From Sarea resinae (Eukaryota), in contig JAPEUD010000039.1 in the NCBI GenBank assembly GCA_026026165.1, forward strand, positions 1 to 64,000: DNA of 64,000 bases. The letters are read 5' to 3'. Positions 8,165 to 62,435 of this stretch are shown one piece after another; the first letter of the stretch is position 1, and every line of letters starts with the position of its first letter. A program made the position numbers and the translations under genes. Below the pieces are notes generated by a model. It did no database searches, was not told the DNA's origin, and worked only from the letters and a program-made list of their open reading frames with translations.

Positions 8165-8787
8165 GGTTTAACGTGTTCTAGGCGTCCCACTATTTTTCAT
8201 TGACCGTCTATCTACTCGAAGGAGGCAAATTTCTGGCGTTCAAGGTCTCATTATCGTCACTCTCTGCATCATTTTACCCAACCGACGACCTAGGAGTTTG
8301 TATCATAGATGGGATATGTATCGGCACATCCGATCAGGATTTTTCTACCACTTTCACTCTTGTCAGACTTTCAATAATAGGAAATCAAATTCCATGGATG
8401 AACCGACGAATATTCGCCAATACGGAAACATGATGCCGCTCGCGAGTGCTTACCCTCGAATGCAAGCATTCACTCGGACAGTTCACATGACTGCTCTCGA
8501 GGAGAGTGCTGCCCTCCAAAGGCAAAGGTTCACTGCTCGGACCTATTCAAATCTTCAAGATTCACCAAGCAGCTCATGGCAAATTTAATCTCGAGTGCTG
8601 ATATATGAACTCTGCCTACTCCTCTTTCTTTGATTTCTTATTCCTATCACTTCGGCCAACCACAACACCAAGCCAGTAATACAACTTTGATTACTACGCA
8701 TCCCGTTGGCCTACAGTCATTCGTCAGGGAAAGGAAAGTCAATGCCAGCTGCTTCTCGCTCTCTGCCAAAAGAAAGAGCCAAAAAGA

Positions 8788-8906
8788 ACATACAGCAGCG
8801 GGTATTCGCTGGTCGTCACCGACCCAACTACTAATCCGCCGGTTTGTGGTTTGAGTACAGGAGAGCGGACGGGATCCTCTATATTCCACAACCTATGGCC
8901 GTATGT
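8788..8906 (-). rRNA. 5S rRNA gene (dispersed copy)
   Basis: Reverse complement reads ACATACGGCCATAGG...GATCCCGTCCGCTCT...GGATTAGTAGTTGGGTCGGTGACGACCAGCGAATACCCGCTGCTGTATGT (119 nt), followed by a T-rich Pol III terminator. Confidence 0.95.
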
Positions 8907-9450: not shown

Positions 9451-10482
9451 ATAATCTTCGTTAAACGATACTAAAAAGGCAGAGCTGAAGTCTTCACCGC
9501 GACGGCACCTTGAAAGACCATTGGACTAGAGTATTGATGTCAAAGGCCGATCCAAGCACATATTGATCAGGCGAAAGGATTCAGCGACTCGCCAAGATCA
9601 CGTACCATATGGCTGTTCTAATAGTGGAATTCTATGATATACATAACTAACGCGAGACTAAAGAAAGGTACCTAATTTCATGTTATCAGTTTTACATCCT
9701 TGGAATGCGGGGATTAGAATTGAAGGGTTTGGGACACACAACGGAGTGAATAATACATGATATGACTATGGTCAAGTGGGATAGTCTCCAGAAGGCAATG
9801 ATAGTGAATACACAGTGAATATGCAGTGACTACACACTGACTATACAAGGAATGCTTAGCAAACGTCTTCTCGAAGGACAGCAGTCTTCGAGGCAGGAAG
9901 GCATTGCCGGTGTTTCTGGCAGACAAAGCTCGACAGACTCAGCAGAGGAATGAAAGCGACCTCGAAGCGTATATAGCGACGACGTCCATCGATCAGCGAC
10001 GTCTTGAGACTGCGACGTTCTTTTTCCGGTCGCATATCTGCTTTGGCCTGTACCTCAATGGTGAGGGCCAATCTCATGCGTGAATCCCGGAAATGCAAAA
10101 GAATACCGTCGCGAGAAGGAAGAGGATTGGGCCATTGTTGTCAATTAGAAGGATTCATACAGCTCAGTCAAGCGCCGTGCACAGACATCTGCCACGTCGA
10201 AAGAATATAAGGTAGGTAGGTAGGATCCAGAGAAATTGGTCAGGTGAGAAAGTATGACTATGGAATAACAGTCCCAATTGTGCGAGACTCGTCTGATTCC
10301 CGAGGTCAGGAAAGACGACGACTGTGGGCCCAGCCCTAGAGGGTGAGGTAGTAGACCAGGTACCCGTATAGCAAGACATCCATATCCAACTTTCTAAAGA
10401 ACTCCAAACCACCTGCACCTACAAAAGCATCCTGCTTCCTGCCCGCGAAACATCATTTCAGAGCACAAATTTGTATTCTCTT

Positions 10483-10515
10483 TTCTATAGTTGCTTCGGC
10501 GACTTGCAGTAATTG
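10483..10515 (+). repeat. Single copy of the dispersed stem-loop repeat (a partial second copy follows at ~10539-10560)
   Basis: TTCTATAGTTGCTTCGGCGACTTGCAGTAATTG is nearly identical to the reverse complement of the 34363 unit. Confidence 0.8.
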
Positions 10516-10558
10516 AGATCTCCGCCTCCTCTTTTCTCTTCTGCAGTTGCTTGCAGCG

Positions 10559-11917
10559 ATGAAGGAAACGTTCGTCTCCGTTCCCTCGAAAGAAATTAAA
10601 TATGTCGGCTTCACTGGGGATGCTGTCACCAGAGGTGTTGACAAGTGGTACTCAGACGACGAACTTGTTCCGCGTGATCGATGAGTTACTGCGTATGATA
10701 TTCCCAGGAAATCTCTGGTGGATACAAACTGACGATTGATTAGCTCCCAACTATAACGACGAGGTTTGGCCGTTTTCTCCTTCTCCTCCCGGCCTTCCTT
10801 CTCTCCGTTCTTCCCCGGCTCTTCCTCTCGATTCTTCCCTCTCCCTCTTTCGGAGCGATCCACCTTCGAAGAGAACATGAGAAACGTCAATGCCAGCGGC
10901 GGCGGCAGTGGCTCGGAAATCGAGGGCGAAAAGACAATCAGACGAGAGGTGAGCAAGATTGTAAAGGTGAAGATGGAGATAGAGGATAGTGAGAACGAAA
11001 GGGTGGCATGGGGGGAAGGGAAAGGTAAGATATTACACTCCTCTGAAACAGGCGGCAATCGGTTAGATGAGCCTAACATTCACTATAGCACCCATTGTGA
11101 TCAGTGATGAGGATGATGACGATAACGATGATGGAAAACGATAGGCCTGAATGCTTTGCGAATAGTATTCTTTACTGATATATTAAATAGAGAGATGACT
11201 CGGGCTTTGGTAGAGAAAGGTCGGTCTTCTCTGCGGCGGGAGGAGCCAGCTCCACCAAGTATGCCCCAGACAAAGAGCACTCAAAGACGTGCCTGGCGGC
11301 GACTACCATCGTCAACGCCAGCGCTAGCGCCACCATCATCGCCACTATCATCGCCATCGCTCCCACCACGACGGAGAAGGATCATCGATATGATGACTGT
11401 TGACGACGAGCAGTCTCGTGGTTTGGGTCGTCCGACGACGGCAACAGCGGTGGTGCCGCAACGGCCGCATCATGCACACCATGTGACATGTGGCCGTGTT
11501 GGGAAAGCACCAAGCGCGACGGTCACAACAACCACGACGATGGTGACGGGAGCGGCGACGGCGACGGCAAGAGCAGCGGCAAGAGCATCTGCGACCTTGG
11601 CGGATGAGGTCAATGGGAAGGGACTGGCACGGAAGTCGCTGCGGAGGGAAGCTTCGCCAGAACCAGCCCCACGGCAAGCACGGCAAGCACGGCTATCACT
11701 GCCATCACTGCCAACGTTGCCGACATTGCTACTACTACCGGCAGGCACAAGATGGTTGACAGGACCGTCACTGTCTCTTCCTCGGGTGCCAGCGAAGAAG
11801 CCGCAGGTCTACAGGAAAGGTGGAAAAGCGGGTGCCTTGGGTGCTGCCAAGAAGAGGATGGCGGAAGAAAAGGAATGAGACGAGGAGTATGCGCCCCCCT
11901 CTAAGAAGAAGAGGTGA
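10559..11917 (+). pseudogene. Low-complexity orphan ORF region (acidic, then Arg/Pro/Thr/Ala-rich), ending in a PPSKKKR NLS-like motif; probably broken
   Basis: ORFs 10766-11107 and 11156-11878 with a frame break before ...EEYAPPSKKKR* (stop 11915-11917); no recognisable domain. Confidence 0.3.
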
Positions 11918-32703: not shown

Positions 32704-33519
32704 ATATTAGCTTCTAAATATACTCTAATATTCTAGGGTGCACTTATAAAGAATTACTATAGATAAAGTCTTCTTTTTAACGTAGAAAGCTAGGAGGAAT
32801 ATGTATAGTCACTTCTCTAGCTAGAAAAGAAGAATATAGACTAGAAGAAATAAGCTATAATTTAGCAACAACGCTCTAGTATGCCTAGGACTAAAGAATA
32901 CTAAGTTCTTTAAGATATTAACAAGAATGTTTAAACCTATAAACTAAGTATAGCGATAAGGCATAGATCTGTGTCGAGTTGCCTATAGTAGTTTAGTAAG
33001 GAGGCAATTCTTCCTGAGCGGCGCGAGTAAACAATGTCGTACAATAGTATGTGTAACAAAGAAGTCGAACCTTGTATGTACTCGAGTATGTACTCGTACT
33101 TTAGTAGAGATTATGTGGGGAAAGGGCACGCTACGAGGCAAGATCTACCTCGCTAGCGTACGCAGCTAAAATCAACGTCTGACCTGTCCCGTCAGCAAGT
33201 AGCCTAAAAGAAGAAGCCAGAGCAGAGTCAAAGATGGGTAATGAAAGAGAGGGAGGGAGAGCTAGGCTATGACTTGGTCAATGAAGCTCAATTGATTGCT
33301 ATCTGCGATTTTAATGCCAGAGAAAGATCAAAGCATGCGATCAAAGTAGAGCCATCCAGCGCGTGAAGAAGAAAAGCCGCCTCTATCAGACACGGGCAGG
33401 AAAGAGAATGTATCCGACAAGATCAGAGCCCTTGGACCAGGCCGACTGCCATGCTACCCTACTCTTCGAACCTAGAGGCGTATGTCAGTGCTACTCTCGT
33501 GTAGTGTTGGCCGATGAGC

Positions 33520-34160
33520 CTACCTTCTCTTCTTGTTCGGCGGCTTGCGCCGCGAACCTTGGTTCAAAGAGCCAGCGGGAGAGCGTTCGCCGGCCGCGGC
33601 GTCTCTGGCCCGCTGCTCGGCTTCCTCTCGGGCTCGCCGCTCTTCTGCCCTCTCCTCTCTCTTCGCCGCTCGGACCTCGCCTTTCCTCTTGTATTTGGTG
33701 ACGTTCTTCCGGCGGCGGCGAGCGGTCTCGAAAGCGGTCTTCTGTGCCACGTGTTCCTCTCGTGGCACTAAGTTGTCGCGGGCACGCTCTATCAAGTCGA
33801 AGTTAGCATCAGCACGATCATTAGAGGACATCAGAACTAACTTCTCTTGCTCCCACGAGCAGACGGTCCTCCAGTCGTGCCAGTCGCCATCTTTGACTCT
33901 TGAGAGTGGCGAAAGGCTGCGGCAGACTGATCTTCCGTATCTCGTCTGCCTTCGTGCTCGCGGATTCCTTCAGGCTCGTCCCAGAAATCGTCTTCCTCGT
34001 CCTCATCGCCCTTCATCAGCATGCTCTCATCTGAGTCCGGGGACTCTAGATAGTGCCCTGAGGAATAGCGGCTTTTGCGCCCATCCTCCTCCGGATCATC
34101 TCCTCCACCAAGTCCGCCCCTGGTGATTCCGGCCCGTTGATCTACTAGGTAGGTCGTCAT
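33520..34160 (-). pseudogene. Orphan charged protein (acidic N-part, Arg/Glu coiled-coil, C-terminal KPPNKKRR NLS-like), split by a frameshift
   Basis: ORFs 33837-34211 and 33520-33831; a diverged partial homologue at 9301-9450 keeps the same reading frame over most of its length. Confidence 0.45.
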
Positions 34161-34210
34161 GGTTGATGTTGTCGAGGGTGCCTTATCCCGTGGTGGAGAG
34201 GGCGAGTCCA

Positions 34211-34630
34211 ATTACTACAAGTCGCTGAAAGCAACTGTAGAAAGAATGGGTAGTGAGGCCGAAGGCGAGGGGTGATGATAAAGATCCGATTACTACAAAT
34301 CGCGAAAAGCAATTGCAGAAGAACGGGAGGATAGTGGTAATGATGATGACGATGAAGTTTCAATTACTACAAGTCGCCGAAGCAACTGTAGAAAGAACGG
34401 GTGGTGAGACCGAAGGCGAGGGGTGATGATGAGGGTTCGATCACTACATATCGCTGAAAGCAATTGTAGAAGAACAGGAAAATGACGTTGACGATGACGA
34501 TGACGATGGTGATGGTGATGGTTCAATTACTACAAGTCGCCGAAGCAATTGTAGAAAGAACGGGAGGATGATGATGATGCCGATGACGATGAAGGTTCGA
34601 TCACTACAAGTCGCCAAGGCAACTGTAGAA
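34211..34630 (-). repeat. Tandem array of six stem-loop repeats, period 74-86 bp
   Basis: Units start at 34211, 34289, 34363, 34440, 34526 and 34600 (+ strand core ATTACTACAAGTCGCCGAAGCAACTGTAGAA); linkers are GAT/GAC-rich and of two related types. Confidence 0.9.
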
Positions 34631-34834
34631 GAGATAGAGCGGTATGAAATGAGGCTTTCGATATCTATTCCGAGTTGCTCCAAGTCTGAAAGACAAACGA
34701 AGCAGAAAATCGGATGGAGACAGGTTGAAGTGGAAAGGAACTGGATTGTGTGTGGACGAACTGGAAGCATGAAGTGTGATGGGAACTAGGGATCGAGCCC
34801 TAAGGTAAGCCACCGAAGCCTTGGAGATCCTGAC

Positions 34835-35018
34835 TGAGACGTTCAACGAAAAGTGACCATGTCAGGTTATTCTCAGTTTCGTTCAGATTTCGTCGAACGT
34901 CTCACGATCGCAAGCGTTTTACCGTCACTGAGGACCCAGCTGTGGGGATGAGACGTTCGACGATATAAGTCCAGAACTCCCTCTGTTGTTTCGATGCACT
35001 TTATCGTCGAACGTCTCA
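34835..35018. repeat. Two 70-bp units, each bounded by 17-bp inverted repeats (TGAGACGTTCRACGA...)
   Basis: 34835-34851 pairs with 34888-34904 (one G.T-type mismatch); 34949-34965 pairs with 35002-35018 (perfect). Both enclose 36-bp spacers with little similarity to each other. Confidence 0.9.
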
Positions 35019-35244
35019 AGGATTTTACCTCGCGGCATCTACAGCACCCACAGCGGCTTTGATATGTTGCAGGTATGACCGTCGAGTGTCTTTACTGGCA
35101 AATCAGCTTACAGATAGCTTGACTCTGATCTCTCAGGATTTCCGTCACTAAATTTACTCTTCATTCCAGCCAATAAAAATGTTAGACTCGACGACGACTC
35201 AACCTGAAAAAATCATGCCTTGATCAACTTGGGCCCAAAAAAAT

Positions 35245-35344
35245 TGGAGCCCTCGGGAGTCGAACCCGATCCGCCTCTATAACAGGTCCTCGCCGAAGCA
35301 AGTCCAGAATTTAAGGTACGTGCCGTACCCCTGGGCCAGGCCCC
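35245..35344 (-). tRNA. Atypical tRNA-like Pol III gene, anticodon undetermined, Ala-type acceptor (G3:U70, A73)
   Basis: GGGGCC-TGGCCCAGGGGTACGGC (A box/D arm) ... TCGGG-TTCGACT-CCCGA (perfect T arm/B box), then GGGCTCCA and a T7 terminator. The central ~50 nt do not form a canonical anticodon arm. Confidence 0.7.
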
Positions 35345-35906
35345 TTGCTTTTGAAAGTAGCTGCTGATTTCACATCTATGACCGCGCACTAATTGATCAT
35401 TAGAAGAGTGAATTTCGTTGGTTGATAGGAGACCAATGAGAAGAAGCTCACAGCCCTGGCTTCATCCTCAGCTTGTCTATCATCACCGTTCCTATCTTCG
35501 CCTCATCCAAATTCTCCACGCCACGTATCATGGCTGAAGCCTTCCAGGTTAGCTGTCATCACTCTTGACTGGCTACGTCACCTCACCTTGTTCATCATCG
35601 ATCTCATCTTGACTTCAAGCATCAATCAGACTGACCATCAATCATTGGATCGAACCATTGCGGAAACTTCCACCTGCCCTGCCACGCGGTCTCGTTGGCG
35701 AGCAATAGACCCATTAAGATTGAGTCCCGCCTTCCCGATCAGAAGCATCACCACTCATCCATTCCGTCAGTGCTGCGAAACTAGACTTTACAGTACAGCC
35801 TCTTTGATCTGTTGCCAGCGGCCGACTCTGGTCAGAGCCGACTCATGCAGTCCTCTGACATCATCTTGCAACTGTGCAGAGGCCAGCAGCGACCAGACCT
35901 TAGACA

Positions 35907-37507
35907 TTGGGACACTACATCCTCTCTGCCCGCGAGAAGCACCCGGGCGAGAAAATCATTGTCTGCGCACCCTCGAATCAAGCGTCGGATGCAATCCTTG
36001 CCAGCACAGACGAGCCGGAGGTGTTCAAAAAGAACGGGGGTAGGCTTTCCTACATACTAGGTCAAATGCCAGGGAGCTTTGGTAAAGCGCTTGATTTTCG
36101 AGGGATAATCAACTCAAAACCGGGATTCTCGCTCAGAGTCGAGTTGTTTCTGCACGGGCACATCGGTTGAATGGCTCAAGGAGAGTTTGAAAGCAATCAA
36201 AAAGGCAAGTAAATTCCTAACAATAACCATCTCCAACTAATGATTTTCTGGATAATGTTAGCTATTGTCGCGCTTCGTCGGGTCGCTGCAGGAGTTCACC
36301 ACAATACGCCTACTACGATCAAACTCCTGGTACTGAATGCAATTACAAATCTGACACGAGCAAACCTTGGTCCAACCAATGGCCAGTCTGGAAAGAGTCC
36401 GCCTACAGACCGGCCAGGCCTTGCTCGATCCAGCGGCTAAAAGTTCAGTGACTTTCATATCAATGCAGCAATTATCTGAATCGGGGAGGAAACAAGGCAG
36501 TTTTTGAGGCCATGACGGACTTGACTAATTTGATGCCATTTGTCGCTCCTTGCATCAAGTGGCAAGAAGGTTCCTCATGACTCGCGCAATGGTGGTGACT
36601 TTTGGTGTGTCGCCTTCCAACATCGGTGCACTAAGGCTTCGGATAATGCCGCCATCAACGAAGGTAAGGTAAGATTGCTAAAGACTCTCGCTAGTGTATA
36701 AAAATGATTCATTTCTCGATTGCTGCTGACAAGTTGCAGATGCCTACCTGTGGCTAAGAAGTGGCCCCACTAGGAACCCCGCCCCACGTCATAAAGAGCT
36801 CGAGGGCGCCCCCGCATCATCAAGAACTCAAAAGACAGGCCCGGCAGGAACAACCATGCGGATAAGGTCGTAGGCTGAGATCTCGCGACCGGCTATCAAC
36901 GCTTCGGCGGATTGTGGGAGGAAGGCTCATACAATTAGGATCACATGCATCAATATCGACCAACCATATCCGCCTAGCAGGCGGAGAATGACAGTCCACC
37001 ACGACCGTACACTAGACCGATATATCTTAGCATCGATCTCTGTCCGCTAACACGGTGTCATTCGTCCTTTTCGGACACCCAACTAAAATGACAACTCATG
37101 CTCGCCATATCACGAAATATCTCTCCACCTAGGATAGGATGAAGTAAGTCGAGGGAAGAGGTATAATTTCTTCCATTGGCTAATGTTGTTTGCGGATGAA
37201 GGCATCATCAAGATCTCCTCCGAGCCTTTCTGTGTCGGCAGTCATCATCCAAGTCGAACAGTATCTTTGGACGCCGACGAGAACAAGATCTATGGAACTG
37301 GTCCTCGACGGTCTTGATACTACACAATGCTACATCAATCCCCAGCCTACGACATCAGCAGTTTCGTGGTCTAGCTTGTTTCATTCGGCTCGTTGCTGCA
37401 TTGCCGAGTCCTCCGCGCATCTCACAAGAGACTTGGGTCCCGCAACACCGCTCGTGAATTTGCCGCTGATCTAGGCGCTTTACCCTACGGGCGACCCGTA
37501 CCAGAAC
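35907..37507 (+). pseudogene. Scattered fragments of a second copy of the SF1 helicase gene
   Basis: 35907-36045 LGHYILSAREKHPGEKIIVCAPSNQASDAILAS matches 39504-39640; 36547-36635 SLHQVARRFLMTRAMVV matches 39656-39745; 37448-37507 PLVNLPLI*ALYPTGDPYQN matches 40011-40074. Order is collinear, with unrelated DNA in between. Confidence 0.75.
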
Positions 37508-38569
37508 ATGCCTATGCTCTCTCTCCCTTGGACCATCTGAACATAGCAGAGCAGCAAGACATTATCAGCCTCGATTGGCAAGAGGCACTGAGCTCAAAGG
37601 AAATCTCAGAAAGAATCCAGCGAGCCTCGTTTGATTTGGACCAAAACGGAAGATCATTACCCGGCTGCCGAAAAGCCTGGAAACAGAGCGTGGCGGATCT
37701 GATGATGGACCGAGGGATCCCTCACGTCCATCCTAAATGTGCAGTACCGATGCTATGCTAGAGCAGCCAGACTAAACACCGCAAAACACGACAAGCCATA
37801 AGGGATTGTTGAGGTTTACACATTCCGGATCTTCGACCGCAAACACCCTAGGGTGGGCCTCGCATTCATTTCAAATGAACCTGCAATACAACGACGTTCA
37901 TTCAATCTGTTGCCACTGCGTTTGACCGTTTTTGATTGCCCACTACCCCAACCATTCACCATACCCATTCATATGTCCCATTCTCCTTTCAGCCATACAT
38001 CTATTTCATTCATCGTATTAGTCACGTCAGCAATCCGTACATCTCCCACTTCAAATATAAAAGGGCTCCCATGGTTGTCTATTCTTTTCCTTTTCCTTTT
38101 CCTTTCTGTACTCCTTCCTGCGGACATTTTAATTTCCACATCAACGCAATCTAGCATGCCATTAACTCATTAAAACCACCTTCTAGGTCTATACCTTAAA
38201 CCATATTCGAACATGGGTCTCATTCTAGTTGGAGATGAGACACAGCTCGTTCCGACAGTCATGTCTGGCCAGTGATTTAACCAATACAATGAAAATGCTT
38301 CGACTTTGGTAAAATCGCTGTTCTCACGACTTCGGGCCGAGAGGTTTCCCACGATTGAATTTCGCAATCTGCGTCAGCTATTGGCTTTCGGGCCTCCAAC
38401 TCTAGATTTGTGCTGCTTGTTAATCTTCAAGCCTTATATATGTGTATCAACGCATACGCCGCCCGTCAGATATTCATTTTTTATCAAAGTTTCCAAAAGA
38501 CGCCCGGAAAGAGAGTATAATGGGCCAAATACTGACTTAGGGAACCTGCACGTCGAACTCAACTTGCAG

Positions 38570-41100
38570 TGCCTTGCCATGCGGGATCGAGAGGCATCCG
38601 AGGCTCCCCCGCCACTGCTTTCCCTTTGGCGACGATGTTCGGCAAGATGCTGAAAATCCGACTTGCCGACATGGATGCAAAGTTGATCCCGCTCGCTCGA
38701 TTTCAGGCCTTGGCGTCGGTAGTCGTTACCGAAGAGTAGAAGATGGCCCGGTACATCACCAGGATTATCAACGCCATCGATGCCGAGTCTGCTGCTCAAG
38801 AAAAGGCGCTAAACGGGGAGAACCGAGATGGCTGCGAGGCTAGGTTCTCTCTGTGGAATGACTGCCTGATCGTGGCACTCGACCCGCCCCCGGGTAGAAT
38901 GACCCCCGATTGGTCCTTCCGGTCTGGACAGCGGCTGGAGTTTGCTGAGCGCGAGCCTGATGCTACCCAGTCCGAGCCCTCCACAGATAAGGGCAAGGGA
39001 AAGGAAGTGGCCGCCGCTGATCCGGAGCTGCTAGAGCGCGTCGAGATCCGTGTCAAGGATTCCATGCCAGTGCCCGGCACCCTCACGGCCGTAGTGGAGA
39101 GTTCTATCGACGCAAAGGTCCGGGAAAGACTCCTGGCAGCGGACGCTTTGCCAATGCGCGTCCAAGTGAAGATCATCTACGAGGATCCCACTGCGGACCG
39201 TAGCTCCGCTGCCTTAAGAAGCTGGCGGAGATCTGGGGTCTCCGACCAGTTTAGGAGCCTGCCGAGAGGCCGAGAGTCCTGCTCGACCTCAAGAGCATTC
39301 TCTTGCCCCATGCCCCTTTCGATCCAAGCCCGAAGCCTCTGGATTATAAAAAGGGCACGGGCACCATAGGGGCGGCAGATATTCCCAACCTCGCCTCGTG
39401 GGGTCTGAATGCCGCCCAGACCGCGGCAATCGTGAGCGGCCAGGCTCCTCCAGGAGGAGTGACCATCGTCCAGGGCCCGCCGGGGACGGGGAAGTCCAAG
39501 AAATTGGGCCACTACATCCTCTCCCTCCGCCAGAAGCACCAAAGCCATAAGATCATTGTCTGTGCCTCCACCAATCAAGCGCTGGATGCAATCCTTGCCA
39601 GCGCAGAGGCGGTGTTCAAAGCGGCCGGGACGGGCTTCCCTGCATGCCGGGTCACCTCCTTGCACCAAGTGGCAAGGAGGTACCTCATGACTCGGGCGAT
39701 GGTGGTGAGTCCGGACGTGTCGTCGTACGACATTGATGCGCTGAGGCGCGACAAAGCCGAGCGTGGCAACTGGGCGCTGTACAAGGAGGGGTTGCGTCAG
39801 CTCGAGGAATTGGGCTACATCAAAGACCCGAACGCTGCCGATGGCTACAGGAAAGAGGCGAGTGCTCTGGCCAAGAAGATCCTTGAGGAGACCGGCATGT
39901 TCTTTGCCACTTGTGGCATGTCCGGCGTCAAGAGCATCCAGTGGCACTACAAGGCCGAAGTTCTCGTGATTGACGAGGCCGGGTTCATCAGAGACCCGGA
40001 CGTCGTCATGCCGCTAGCGGGTGAACATGCCGCTAGTCCAGGCGCTTTATCTCACGGGCGACCCGTACCAAAACGGGCCCGTGCTCCTCACCGCAGCTGC
40101 CGAAGCGGCCTGGAGGCAGCCCATAATGGGCCGCTTGATGGAAAAGCGTCCCGCACCTCCTCTCGACGTGCAGTACCGATGCCACGCAGGCATCGGTGCC
40201 GCAACGAGTCAGGCGTTCTACTAATGGCGCTTTAGTCACGGTCCACCCATCATTATTTACTGGGAGCTTTAATCTTTTCTAACACTAACAAATATTGATA
40301 GAGTCTGTATATCTAATTCAAACAGAATCACTTGGAAAATAGAGGAGGAAAGAGCAGATAAGCTAAAATCTCCTTACTCTCCTGCTCTTTACAACATCAA
40401 TACCGGACAAAATTGTCTAGAACTATTAACTAGAACTATTAACCAAAGCTTCTTTACTATATAGGGCTCTATACTACTTCACGTTAAAGGGCATTACAGA
40501 CTATATGTTAACATATATCTTATAAAGGAGAGTGTAATCTCAATGAATTTAAAGGAAAATACAAAATTTACTATGCGAAAACCTTATAGACTTAAACACT
40601 GGACGGCTTTACATCTAGTGGTTTACATTCTTTAAAATATCGTATAAGACAAAATATACGGTCAGAGCAAGACCGTCAAAAGCACATCGAACGCTTTGGA
40701 GGCGCTGGCGGTCACTCGGTTGGTGGAGGCGGTCCACGCAATGGGGTTTGACTACAACGACATTCTAGTCATAGCCCCATTCAAGGCACAGGTTGCAGAG
40801 CTCTCAAGGGTGGCAGCTGTGACCGGGTGGACCGCCCCCATCAAAACGATCGACAAGGCGCAGGGCGCTGAAGCAGAAGTTGTCATCTTCTGCTTCACCC
40901 GGACCGCAGGCAACTTGGGCTTTCTTCGGCGCGAAAAGCGGATTAACATGGCTACCTCGACAGCTCGAGAAGTATTTTTCATAGTCGGCAACTACGACTA
41001 TATTCAAGAGACCGCGGGCCATCCATTCCGACAGTATCTCAGTGCTCTTAAACCTAATAGGACCACGATCCGCGGAAATCTTGGATGGAAACTCGCTTGA
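38570..41100 (+). pseudogene. Upf1/DNA2/NAM7-like superfamily 1B helicase pseudogene (intronless)
   Basis: Walker A QGPPGTGKS, motif Ia VCASTNQALD, ATC, Walker B LVIDEAG, GDPYQNGP, LDVQYRCH, IAPFKAQV, TIDKAQGAEAEVVIF, RINMATSTAR. Frameshifts at ~39214 and 40017-40020, stops at ~39252 and 40222, AT-rich insertion at ~40250-40658. Confidence 0.88.
40250..40658. mobile_element. AT-rich, TpA-rich insertion (probable RIP-degraded repeat fragment) inside the helicase
   Basis: Abrupt drop in GC between helicase motifs QYRCH and IAPF; includes a tandem CTAGAACTATTAA duplication at ~40417-40442. Confidence 0.55.
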
Positions 41101-61774: not shown

Positions 61775-62020
61775 GATGAGGTGAGAATGAAGGTGATGGA
61801 TGTGGTTATAGTGTAGGTATTGAGTGTGTGTGCGATGATTTGCTGACTAGGTAGGCAGCTGAGTGGCTGCTTTGAAATGAGAGCATTCAACTTTAAGGTA
61901 GGTAGGTATCCATCAAGGTAGGTGACCACAAACGCAGAGAGAGAGGAGAAGATAACCAGAAGGCGAAGAGAAAGTCGGAGAATGAGGAGGTGTCTGAGGT
62001 GATGAGAAAAGAAGAGGTCG

Positions 62021-62435
62021 ATTGCTACAAGCCACCAAGGCAGCGGTAGAATGAATGACGAAGAATGAGGCGTCCGGGGTGACGAGAAAAGACGTGTTCG
62101 ATTACTACACGCCACCAAGGCAGCGGTAGAACAAACGAGGAAGAATGAGGCGTCCGACAAGACGAGAAAAGACGTGTTCAATTGCAACACACTACTAGAG
62201 CAGCGGTTGAACGAACAACGATGACGAAGGCGATGCTTGAGTGGTCGGCACAGGTGTTGAACTCGGCGTCGTCGATGACGGTGTTGATGAATGTGTTGAT
62301 GAAGGGGTTGAAGAGACGGAAGAAGACGTGGATGGTGGAGACGAATTGGTAGAAGTGGTAGAAGTGGTAGAAAGAAGGAGCGTCCGACCAGACGAGAAAG
62401 AAGATTCCATTGCTACACGCCACTAGAGCAGGTAT
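62021..62435 (-). repeat. Tandem array of four (last partial) stem-loop repeats, 80-bp period, with a captured WSC-gene fragment
   Basis: Units start at 62021, 62101, 62181 and 62409 (+ strand core ATTRCTACAMGCCACCAAGGCAGCGGTAGAA); 62220-62371 is a copy of 52454-52617. Confidence 0.88.

Follow-up and report, generated by a model that had tools for sequence, protein, structure and literature searches.

A 100-nt unit on the minus strand of the DNA analysed here (a stretch of 64 000 nucleotides, called the window throughout) descends from a tRNA gene. Most probably it represents such a gene in a broken state, not a novel type of RNA. Our preferred interpretation, which we place slightly above an even chance, is that the unit is a single-copy relic tRNA gene, possibly one that RNA polymerase III (Pol III) still transcribes, like the ZOD1 locus of yeast.

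Structure of the unit and evidence for its origin

Read 5' to 3', the unit consists of GGGGCC(T), TG, the segment GCCC-AGGGGTA-CGGC (A box and would-be D arm), an A, a 51-nt centre, the T arm, GGGCTCC, A73, one further A and T7 (Table 1). The statements of the first-pass annotation on these sequences all proved correct on the minus strand, including the TCATAGA motif and the nucleotide missing before the D stem; re-reading the sequence likewise confirmed that the acceptor 5' strand is 1 nt short and that CGTAC, the candidate 5' strand of the anticodon stem, has no 3' partner.

Table 1. Coordinates of the tRNA-derived unit, its parts and the hairpin-repeat arrays in the window
Feature	Position	Strand	Remarks
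Whole tRNA-derived unit	35245..35344	(−)	100 nt; G1 = 35344, discriminator A73 = 35245
Acceptor 5' strand GGGGCCT	35338..35344	(−)	7/7 pairs with 35246-35252, including G3:U70 and U7:G66
Acceptor 3' strand GGGCTCC	35246..35252	(−)	Followed by A73 at 35245
A box TGGCCCAGGGG	35328..35338	(−)	Would-be positions 8-19, D stem and D loop; fits TRGYNNARNGG
T arm TCGGG-TTCGACT-CCCGA	35253..35269	(−)	5/5 stem pairs; holds the B box
B box GGTTCGACTCC	35256..35266	(−)	Sole GGTTCRANNCC match in the window
51-nt centre	35270..35320	(−)	Stands where the anticodon arm and variable loop would be
UUCG-capped 5-bp hairpin C-TTGC-TTCG-GCGA-G = C-TTGCTTCGGCGA-G	35289..35302	(−)	GGAC direct repeats on its flanks
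Competing 7-bp hairpin GGGGTAC/GTACCTT	35314..35330	(−)	D-loop GG paired to the would-be anticodon 5' strand; in the minimum-free-energy fold
T7 run, candidate Pol III terminator	35237..35243	(−)	One extra A (35244) separates T7 from A73
TCATAGA, weak TATA-like motif	35375..35381	(−)	At −37 to −31
Hairpin-repeat array	10481-10560	(+)	Tandem units of about 74-80 nt; dispersed family
Hairpin-repeat array	34205-34632	(−)	Same family
Hairpin-repeat array	62015-62213	(−)	Same family

The T-loop consensus GTTCRANYC, the A box, the B box and a T-run terminator are all present in the unit, and the tRNA positions U8, A14, G18, G19, G53, T54, T55, C56, A58 and C61 are kept. Among the helices, the T stem (5/5 pairs) and the acceptor (7/7 pairs) are retained and the anticodon arm is wholly gone. 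The D stem is preceded by 8 nt only, as compared with 9 in a tRNA, and the acceptor can be drawn in two ways, either as 6 bp followed by U8-G9 or as 7 bp (with U7:G66) followed by a single connector; the canonical combination of a 7-bp acceptor and a two-nucleotide connector (positions 8 and 9) is absent. The D stem also carries a C13:C22 mismatch, and two of the pairs in the 7-bp acceptor are G:U. The TCATAGA motif says little, since the stand-alone 5S rRNA gene of the window (8787-8906, minus strand; 80.7 bits, T5 terminator) is also without a clear TATA element at about −30.

The B box pattern alone occurs once in the window, against 0.71 occurrences expected by chance. A composite test of the top half combined a B box, a 5-bp T stem, a 7-bp acceptor, an A box beside its 5' strand and T4. 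One match was found in the real window and none in 300 simulated first-order Markov windows, none of which reached even the third step, the 7-bp acceptor. The top half is thus far beyond chance, and the unit descends from a tRNA gene.

Tests for a canonical or intron-containing tRNA

ARAGORN, which the first-pass annotation had proposed as a check, detected no tRNA gene and no tmRNA in the window at its default settings, and no gene when introns of 0-60 nt were allowed at default thresholds, leaving no canonical gene at the unit under either setting. A search of the whole window with Rfam at gathering thresholds gave no match to the tRNA model and returned the 5S gene alone. When the unit was scored against RF00005, it reached 17.2 bits (gathering score 29; E=0.67 in a 401-nt search) over its full extent, 35245-35344 (−), in an alignment that inserts 45 nt after position 27 and before position 43, lacks position 7 and allows three of the four D-stem pairs. 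This score is also below 20 bits, which is given as the default cut-off of tRNAscan-SE in an excerpt of PMC8450103.

An anticodon stem of 5 bp with a 7-nt loop (U33, R37) is absent from the unit, with or without removal of an intron at 37/38. We enumerated 703 models, covering every offset of an intron placed after position 37, and four of them retained at least 4/5 stem pairs together with U33 and R37, as compared with a rough, uncomputed chance estimate of about six; none of these four was correctly spaced from the D arm. A reading of the centre as a spliceosomal GT...AG intron is possible, yet its excision leaves no anticodon arm. We also ran ARAGORN on 2475 single-deletion variants, 239 of which were called as tRNA, with Ser, Ile, Ala, Gln, Lys and Arg among the isotypes of the 80 calls listed. 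So many contradictory isotypes indicate that the unit contains no unique hidden tRNA solution. The first-pass annotation had offered a decayed intron-containing tRNA as one explanation; the further lesions described above point to decay, while no placement of an intron restores a cloverleaf.

Several other candidates were rejected. With unlimited introns, ARAGORN proposed a 'tRNA-Lys' with a 1494-nt intron, a spurious call with a poor acceptor and only the 3' half in common with the unit. Threading by hand into the 9/4 fold of tRNA-Sec or into a type II tRNA left both unpaired, and the weak Rfam matches to YrlA (20 bits versus 69), ivy-DE (19.8 versus 41.4) and mascRNA (14.3 versus 42.5) were far under their thresholds. 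The unit is not a canonical or working tRNA.

Predicted RNA fold

The minimum-free-energy fold of the unit, at about −41 kcal/mol (−41.0), was not more stable than those of shuffled sequences (z = −1.14). Pair probabilities were 0.99-1.0 in the acceptor (six pairs tested, 1-6 with 94-99), 0.83-0.97 across the 5/5 pairs of the T stem, 0.95-0.96 in the UUCG hairpin (35289-35302) and 0.74-1.0 in the competing hairpin (35314-35330). The D stem had a predicted probability of 0.0, and forcing it cost 7.6 kcal/mol (−33.4 versus −41.0), a result obtained by thermodynamic prediction, in which neither tertiary contacts nor base modifications are taken into account. In this prediction GGGGUAC pairs with GUACCUU at the expense of the D stem, tying the D-loop GG to the would-be 5' strand of the anticodon stem. 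The A box is thus intact as a promoter element in the DNA, but no tRNA elbow is predicted.

The centre of the unit and the hairpin repeats

The units of the hairpin-repeat family share a conserved 10-bp bulged hairpin arranged as TTCTAC-stem-loop-stem-TGTAGTAATYGAA. Across 10 copies, 96% of cells were paired and 4/10 pairs changed on both sides; the covariation score was reached by 0/500 shuffles, and a U:G pair was kept in 9/10 copies. The pairing, the covariation and the kept U:G pair point to a structure at the RNA level or in single-stranded nucleic acid. The repeats are not coding sequence, as stops occur in every frame on both strands. Two of the arrays lie just upstream of an ATG in the same orientation, at 10560 (+) and about 34158 (−), and a further copy of the hairpin repeat was observed on another contig of the source sequencing run.

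The first-pass annotation had recognized that a 12-mer of the unit is also the core of the stem-loop repeats downstream, and we located its exact recurrences. The 12-mer TTGCTTCGGCGA occurs four times in the window: as the core of the hairpin at 35289-35302, and at 34374-34385 (−), 34537-34548 (−) and 10491-10502 (+). The copy at 10491 belongs to the same repeat family as the array at 34.2-34.6 kb, and since the three other occurrences all come from one family they count as one event. When 300 random 100-nt segments of the window were examined, 57% shared at least one exact 12-mer with a place elsewhere in the window and 22% shared at least three. The hairpin shared between the unit and the repeats is not beyond chance.

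In both the unit and the repeat family the 12-mer makes a UUCG-capped stem, whereas the outer stem and the flanks (TTCTAC..., ...TGTAGTAATYGAA) belong to the family alone; the unit's centre has neither the 10-bp bulged hairpin nor these flanks. An nhmmer profile of 8 repeat units gave no match to the centre even at E<=100. A covariance model built from 10 repeat units, run with filters off, scored the centre at 8.7 bits (E=7) and aligned model positions 11-22 only, the bare 12-mer, while its own ten members scored 45.6-58.2 bits. A tie of the unit to the repeat arrays, as in the earlier proposal of a tRNA-like RNA linked to them, is not supported: the profile does not match, the covariance model sees nothing but the 12-mer, and sharing a 12-mer is commonplace in this window.

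We also considered whether the centre is a diverged copy of a repeat unit, or a patchwork copied from within 2 kb, that entered the tRNA gene when a break in it was repaired. In favour of such an origin, the match beyond the 12-mer extends to 17/20 identical positions with an array unit (a local alignment scoring 14, with P=0.045 from 200 shuffles), and exact 10-mers from within ±2 kb cover 30/51 nt of the centre (P=0.027 from 2000 random 51-nt segments). The 20 nt TTCTGGACTTGCTTCGGCGA within 35289-35309 match 34957-34976 at 16/20 positions in addition to the array unit at 17/20, and GGAC direct repeats lie around the 12-mer. These P values are all marginal, post hoc and mutually dependent, however, and the coverage falls to P=0.10 with 9-mers and P=0.41 with 8-mers. 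Membership of the family is rejected by both the profile and the covariance model, and two different 'donors' fit the same 20 nt about equally, as chance matches do. We regard a local copy as quite unlikely, and the marginal k-mer and alignment signals as a weak hint, and no more, that the inserted sequence may be of local origin. The GGAC direct repeats and the two different nearby matches of TTCTGGACTTGCTTCGGCGA may reflect chance or a trace of templated repair.

Genomic setting and copy number

The unit is intergenic, upstream of the minus-strand ATG at about 34158, with a candidate plus-strand ATG at 35531 (identified by eye) on the opposite side. A roughly 20-kb block (about 12250-33000) shows the dinucleotide composition expected of repeat-induced point mutation (RIP), with TpA/ApT of about 1.3-3.1, GC of 0.34-0.45 and (CpA+TpG)/(ApC+GpT) of about 0.5-1.0, and probably consists of mutated transposon relics. 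Its edge is about 2.2 kb from the unit, with one gene in between. The bins at 33501-39000, which include the unit, are not RIP-like, and we rejected RIP as the cause of the unit's decay on this ground.

Other features of the window were recorded. An ORF encoding an MFS transporter had its nearest Atlas clusters in Ascomycota; together with the RIP-type block and the dispersed 5S gene, this places the window in an ascomycete. At 34835-35018 there are two adjacent inverted-repeat pairs with a MITE-like look (arms TGAGACGTTCGACGA / TCGTCGAACGTCTCA), one with 17-nt arms that are 100% complementary and 36 nt apart, the other with 22-nt arms that are 86% complementary and 26 nt apart; they probably recur elsewhere in the genome, because extra contigs of the source run align to those bins. 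A short ORF at 35907-36167 (+) matched the AAA_11 helicase domain weakly (17.8 bits, cut-off 27), and 35902-36010 aligned again about 3.5 kb farther along the source contig, with 20 differences in 109 nt, which suggests a duplicated gene fragment.

Among the contigs of the source run, no second copy of 35171-35504 was detected at a likeness of at least 80%, a search that short matches may escape. Unlike this segment, the repeats neighbouring the unit were matched by extra source-run contigs, which is slight evidence for a single copy of the unit and against a SINE. In two further runs of the same study (80% likeness), matches were confined to bins of GAT-rich repeats and no orthologue of the unit was seen. 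A metagenome scan with a pattern of the D loop and T loop returned one match, an unrelated tRNA-Arg(TCT) that is one of four clustered tRNAs. The unit's sequence strings had no match in the searchable full-text literature; literature searches found nothing on tRNA pseudogenes in Pezizomycotina and, judged by the titles listed, nothing relevant on tRNA-like Pol III genes of filamentous fungi.

Discussion

In the interpretation that we prefer, the unit would be what is left of a nuclear tRNA gene, with its upper half and its internal Pol III promoter surviving; the genome is that of an ascomycete and bears marks of RIP. In a single rearrangement the anticodon arm would have been exchanged for about 45-51 nt of unrelated sequence. 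The C13:C22 mismatch, the nucleotide missing before the D stem and the two acceptor G:U pairs point to decay, and a flawless promoter and top half, combined with the replacement of the anticodon arm and a few small lesions, fits a relic with one rearrangement, the arm having been lost by replacement and not by point decay. TFIIIC would still be able to bind the B and A boxes and TFIIIB would assemble upstream, so that Pol III could start near G1 and stop at T7, giving an RNA of about 100 nt with an acceptor/T-arm minihelix open to end-processing. This RNA could not decode, and its predicted fold, which has no D arm, suggests that it would probably be an unstable by-product without a role of its own.

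The closest parallels come from yeast, where, as described in passages of PMC5356446, ZOD1 is an ancient tRNA-Ile gene with weak Pol III transcription even now, and iYGR033C had its origin in a tDNA-Arg. The unit resembles ZOD1, iYGR033C and the ETC sites of Saccharomyces cerevisiae in being a degenerate tRNA-derived locus with Pol III promoter elements kept. It differs from them in that its loss is confined to the anticodon arm, with the acceptor helix fully paired, and in that occupancy, transcription and conservation have been shown for the yeast loci, whereas the unit is known from its sequence alone. With the tRNA pseudogenes flagged by tRNAscan-SE it shares a low covariance score and lost secondary structure (excerpt of PMC8450103), but many of those belong to repeated families and the unit had no second source-run contig, a weak distinction. 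Fungal tRNA-derived SINEs, such as the AfuSINE2 families of Aspergillus fumigatus (PMC5063351), likewise have a tRNA-related head with A and B boxes, but SINEs continue beyond it into a body and tail, are flanked by target-site duplications and exist in many copies. At the unit no flanking duplication and no further copy were seen, and the terminator follows 1 nt after A73.

Two observations stand against a relic. The unit carries the full set of bacterial alanine acceptor-stem determinants (G2:C71, G3:U70, G4:C69 and A73), as listed in a table of PMC9976931, which would be a coincidence in a random relic. The decay is also very uneven, which requires that one rearrangement took place recently or that selection has acted on the promoter and top half. 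On account of this unevenness we still consider two functional readings, namely a DNA element bound by TFIIIC and a chargeable tRNA-like RNA. That the relic has been kept as a DNA element bound by TFIIIC or Pol III (ETC-like, or a tDNA barrier) shielding the neighbouring Pol II genes, with selection acting on the A and B boxes and not on an RNA, is in our view rather unlikely. Both boxes have survived whole, and the window contains no second B box, though the decoding part of the gene has been destroyed. tDNAs act as barriers, and the unit lies in an intergenic site close to the RIP-like block, whose bins have TpA/ApT of about 2 and GC of 0.34-0.44. Precedents in yeast are TFIIIC-only sites and Pol III-bound tDNA relics (passages of PMC5356446). 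A barrier requires the B box alone, however, which leaves the acceptor pairing and the terminator unexplained, and one gene lies between the unit and the block. It is highly improbable that the unit is a decoding tRNA in working order whose intron or architecture is unconventional and escapes standard tools. Such a tRNA would agree with the length of 100 nt, which we take to be compatible with an intron-bearing type II tRNA gene, and with the D arm, presumably similar to the Leu/Ser type, and at a 95% threshold ARAGORN does draw a model for Ser(GGA) in which a 9-nt intron lies at 28/29. That model is contrived: its anticodon stem is mispaired, its variable arm is irregular, and we know of no intron at position 28/29 in fungi. 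The absence of any gene call at default thresholds with introns, the chance-level outcome of the 37/38 search and the mutually contradictory isotypes of the deletion scan all argue against it.

The first-pass annotation had favoured an aminoacylatable, non-decoding tRNA-like RNA associated with the arrays. The link to the arrays did not hold. Its sequence basis did: the unit has the identity elements of alanyl-tRNA synthetase (AlaRS), G3:U70 within a paired acceptor helix and A73, as features of its sequence, and the statement that G3:U70 needs no anticodon agrees with PMC9976931, passages of which describe it as a conserved major alanine determinant that works in minihelices. A functional non-decoding Pol III RNA, whose minihelix would be processed by RNase P, RNase Z and the CCA enzyme and charged by AlaRS through G3:U70 and A73, with the central hairpins standing in for the anticodon arm to serve another partner, is nevertheless unlikely. 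Besides the alanine determinants, active as they are in minihelices, such an RNA would account for a top half and promoter that are flawless while the bottom half has been replaced, and for a UUCG hairpin that is predicted to be stable (0.95-0.96); yeast, too, has tRNA-like Pol III transcripts (TLTs), described as of unknown function in passages of PMC5356446. On the other side, the fold is no stabler than shuffles, the D-loop GG is predicted to be locked in the competing hairpin at the expense of the tRNA elbow, one connector nucleotide is absent, and the two acceptor G:U pairs suggest drift; the failure of the proposed array tie and, weakly, the lack of a second copy among source-run contigs add to this. 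The G3:U70 pair itself may be a decay product (a C-to-T change) and not necessarily an alanine signature, since a change of C70 to U in a decaying stem would yield the same pair. We consider it very unlikely that the unit encodes a nuclear Pol III RNA that combines an alanine-accepting tRNA top half with stable hairpins, would be charged by AlaRS and would act, without decoding, as a decoy, sensor or alanine donor.

If that were nonetheless the case, the AlaRS-charged unit would give eukaryotes an equivalent of tmRNA's tRNA-like domain. With this domain and with AlaRS minihelices it has in common a G3:U70 acceptor, A73, a T arm and no anticodon arm, and acceptor helices with these features are alanylated in vitro (PMC9976931). 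Unlike tmRNA, which is bacterial or organellar, the unit is of a nuclear Pol III type and has neither a tag frame nor pseudoknots. An identity as tmRNA was rejected, with no tmRNA from ARAGORN and 14.1 bits for the Rfam model tmRNA_permuted against a gathering score of 47.

A top half that was both conserved and charged would define a new class of eukaryotic tRNA-like RNA, for which sequence features are the sole support here. If the unit is a relic, as we think most likely, it matters for annotation only, as a tRNA-derived locus that standard finders skip, and it may still load TFIIIC and Pol III beside two protein genes, near a block of RIP-mutated DNA.
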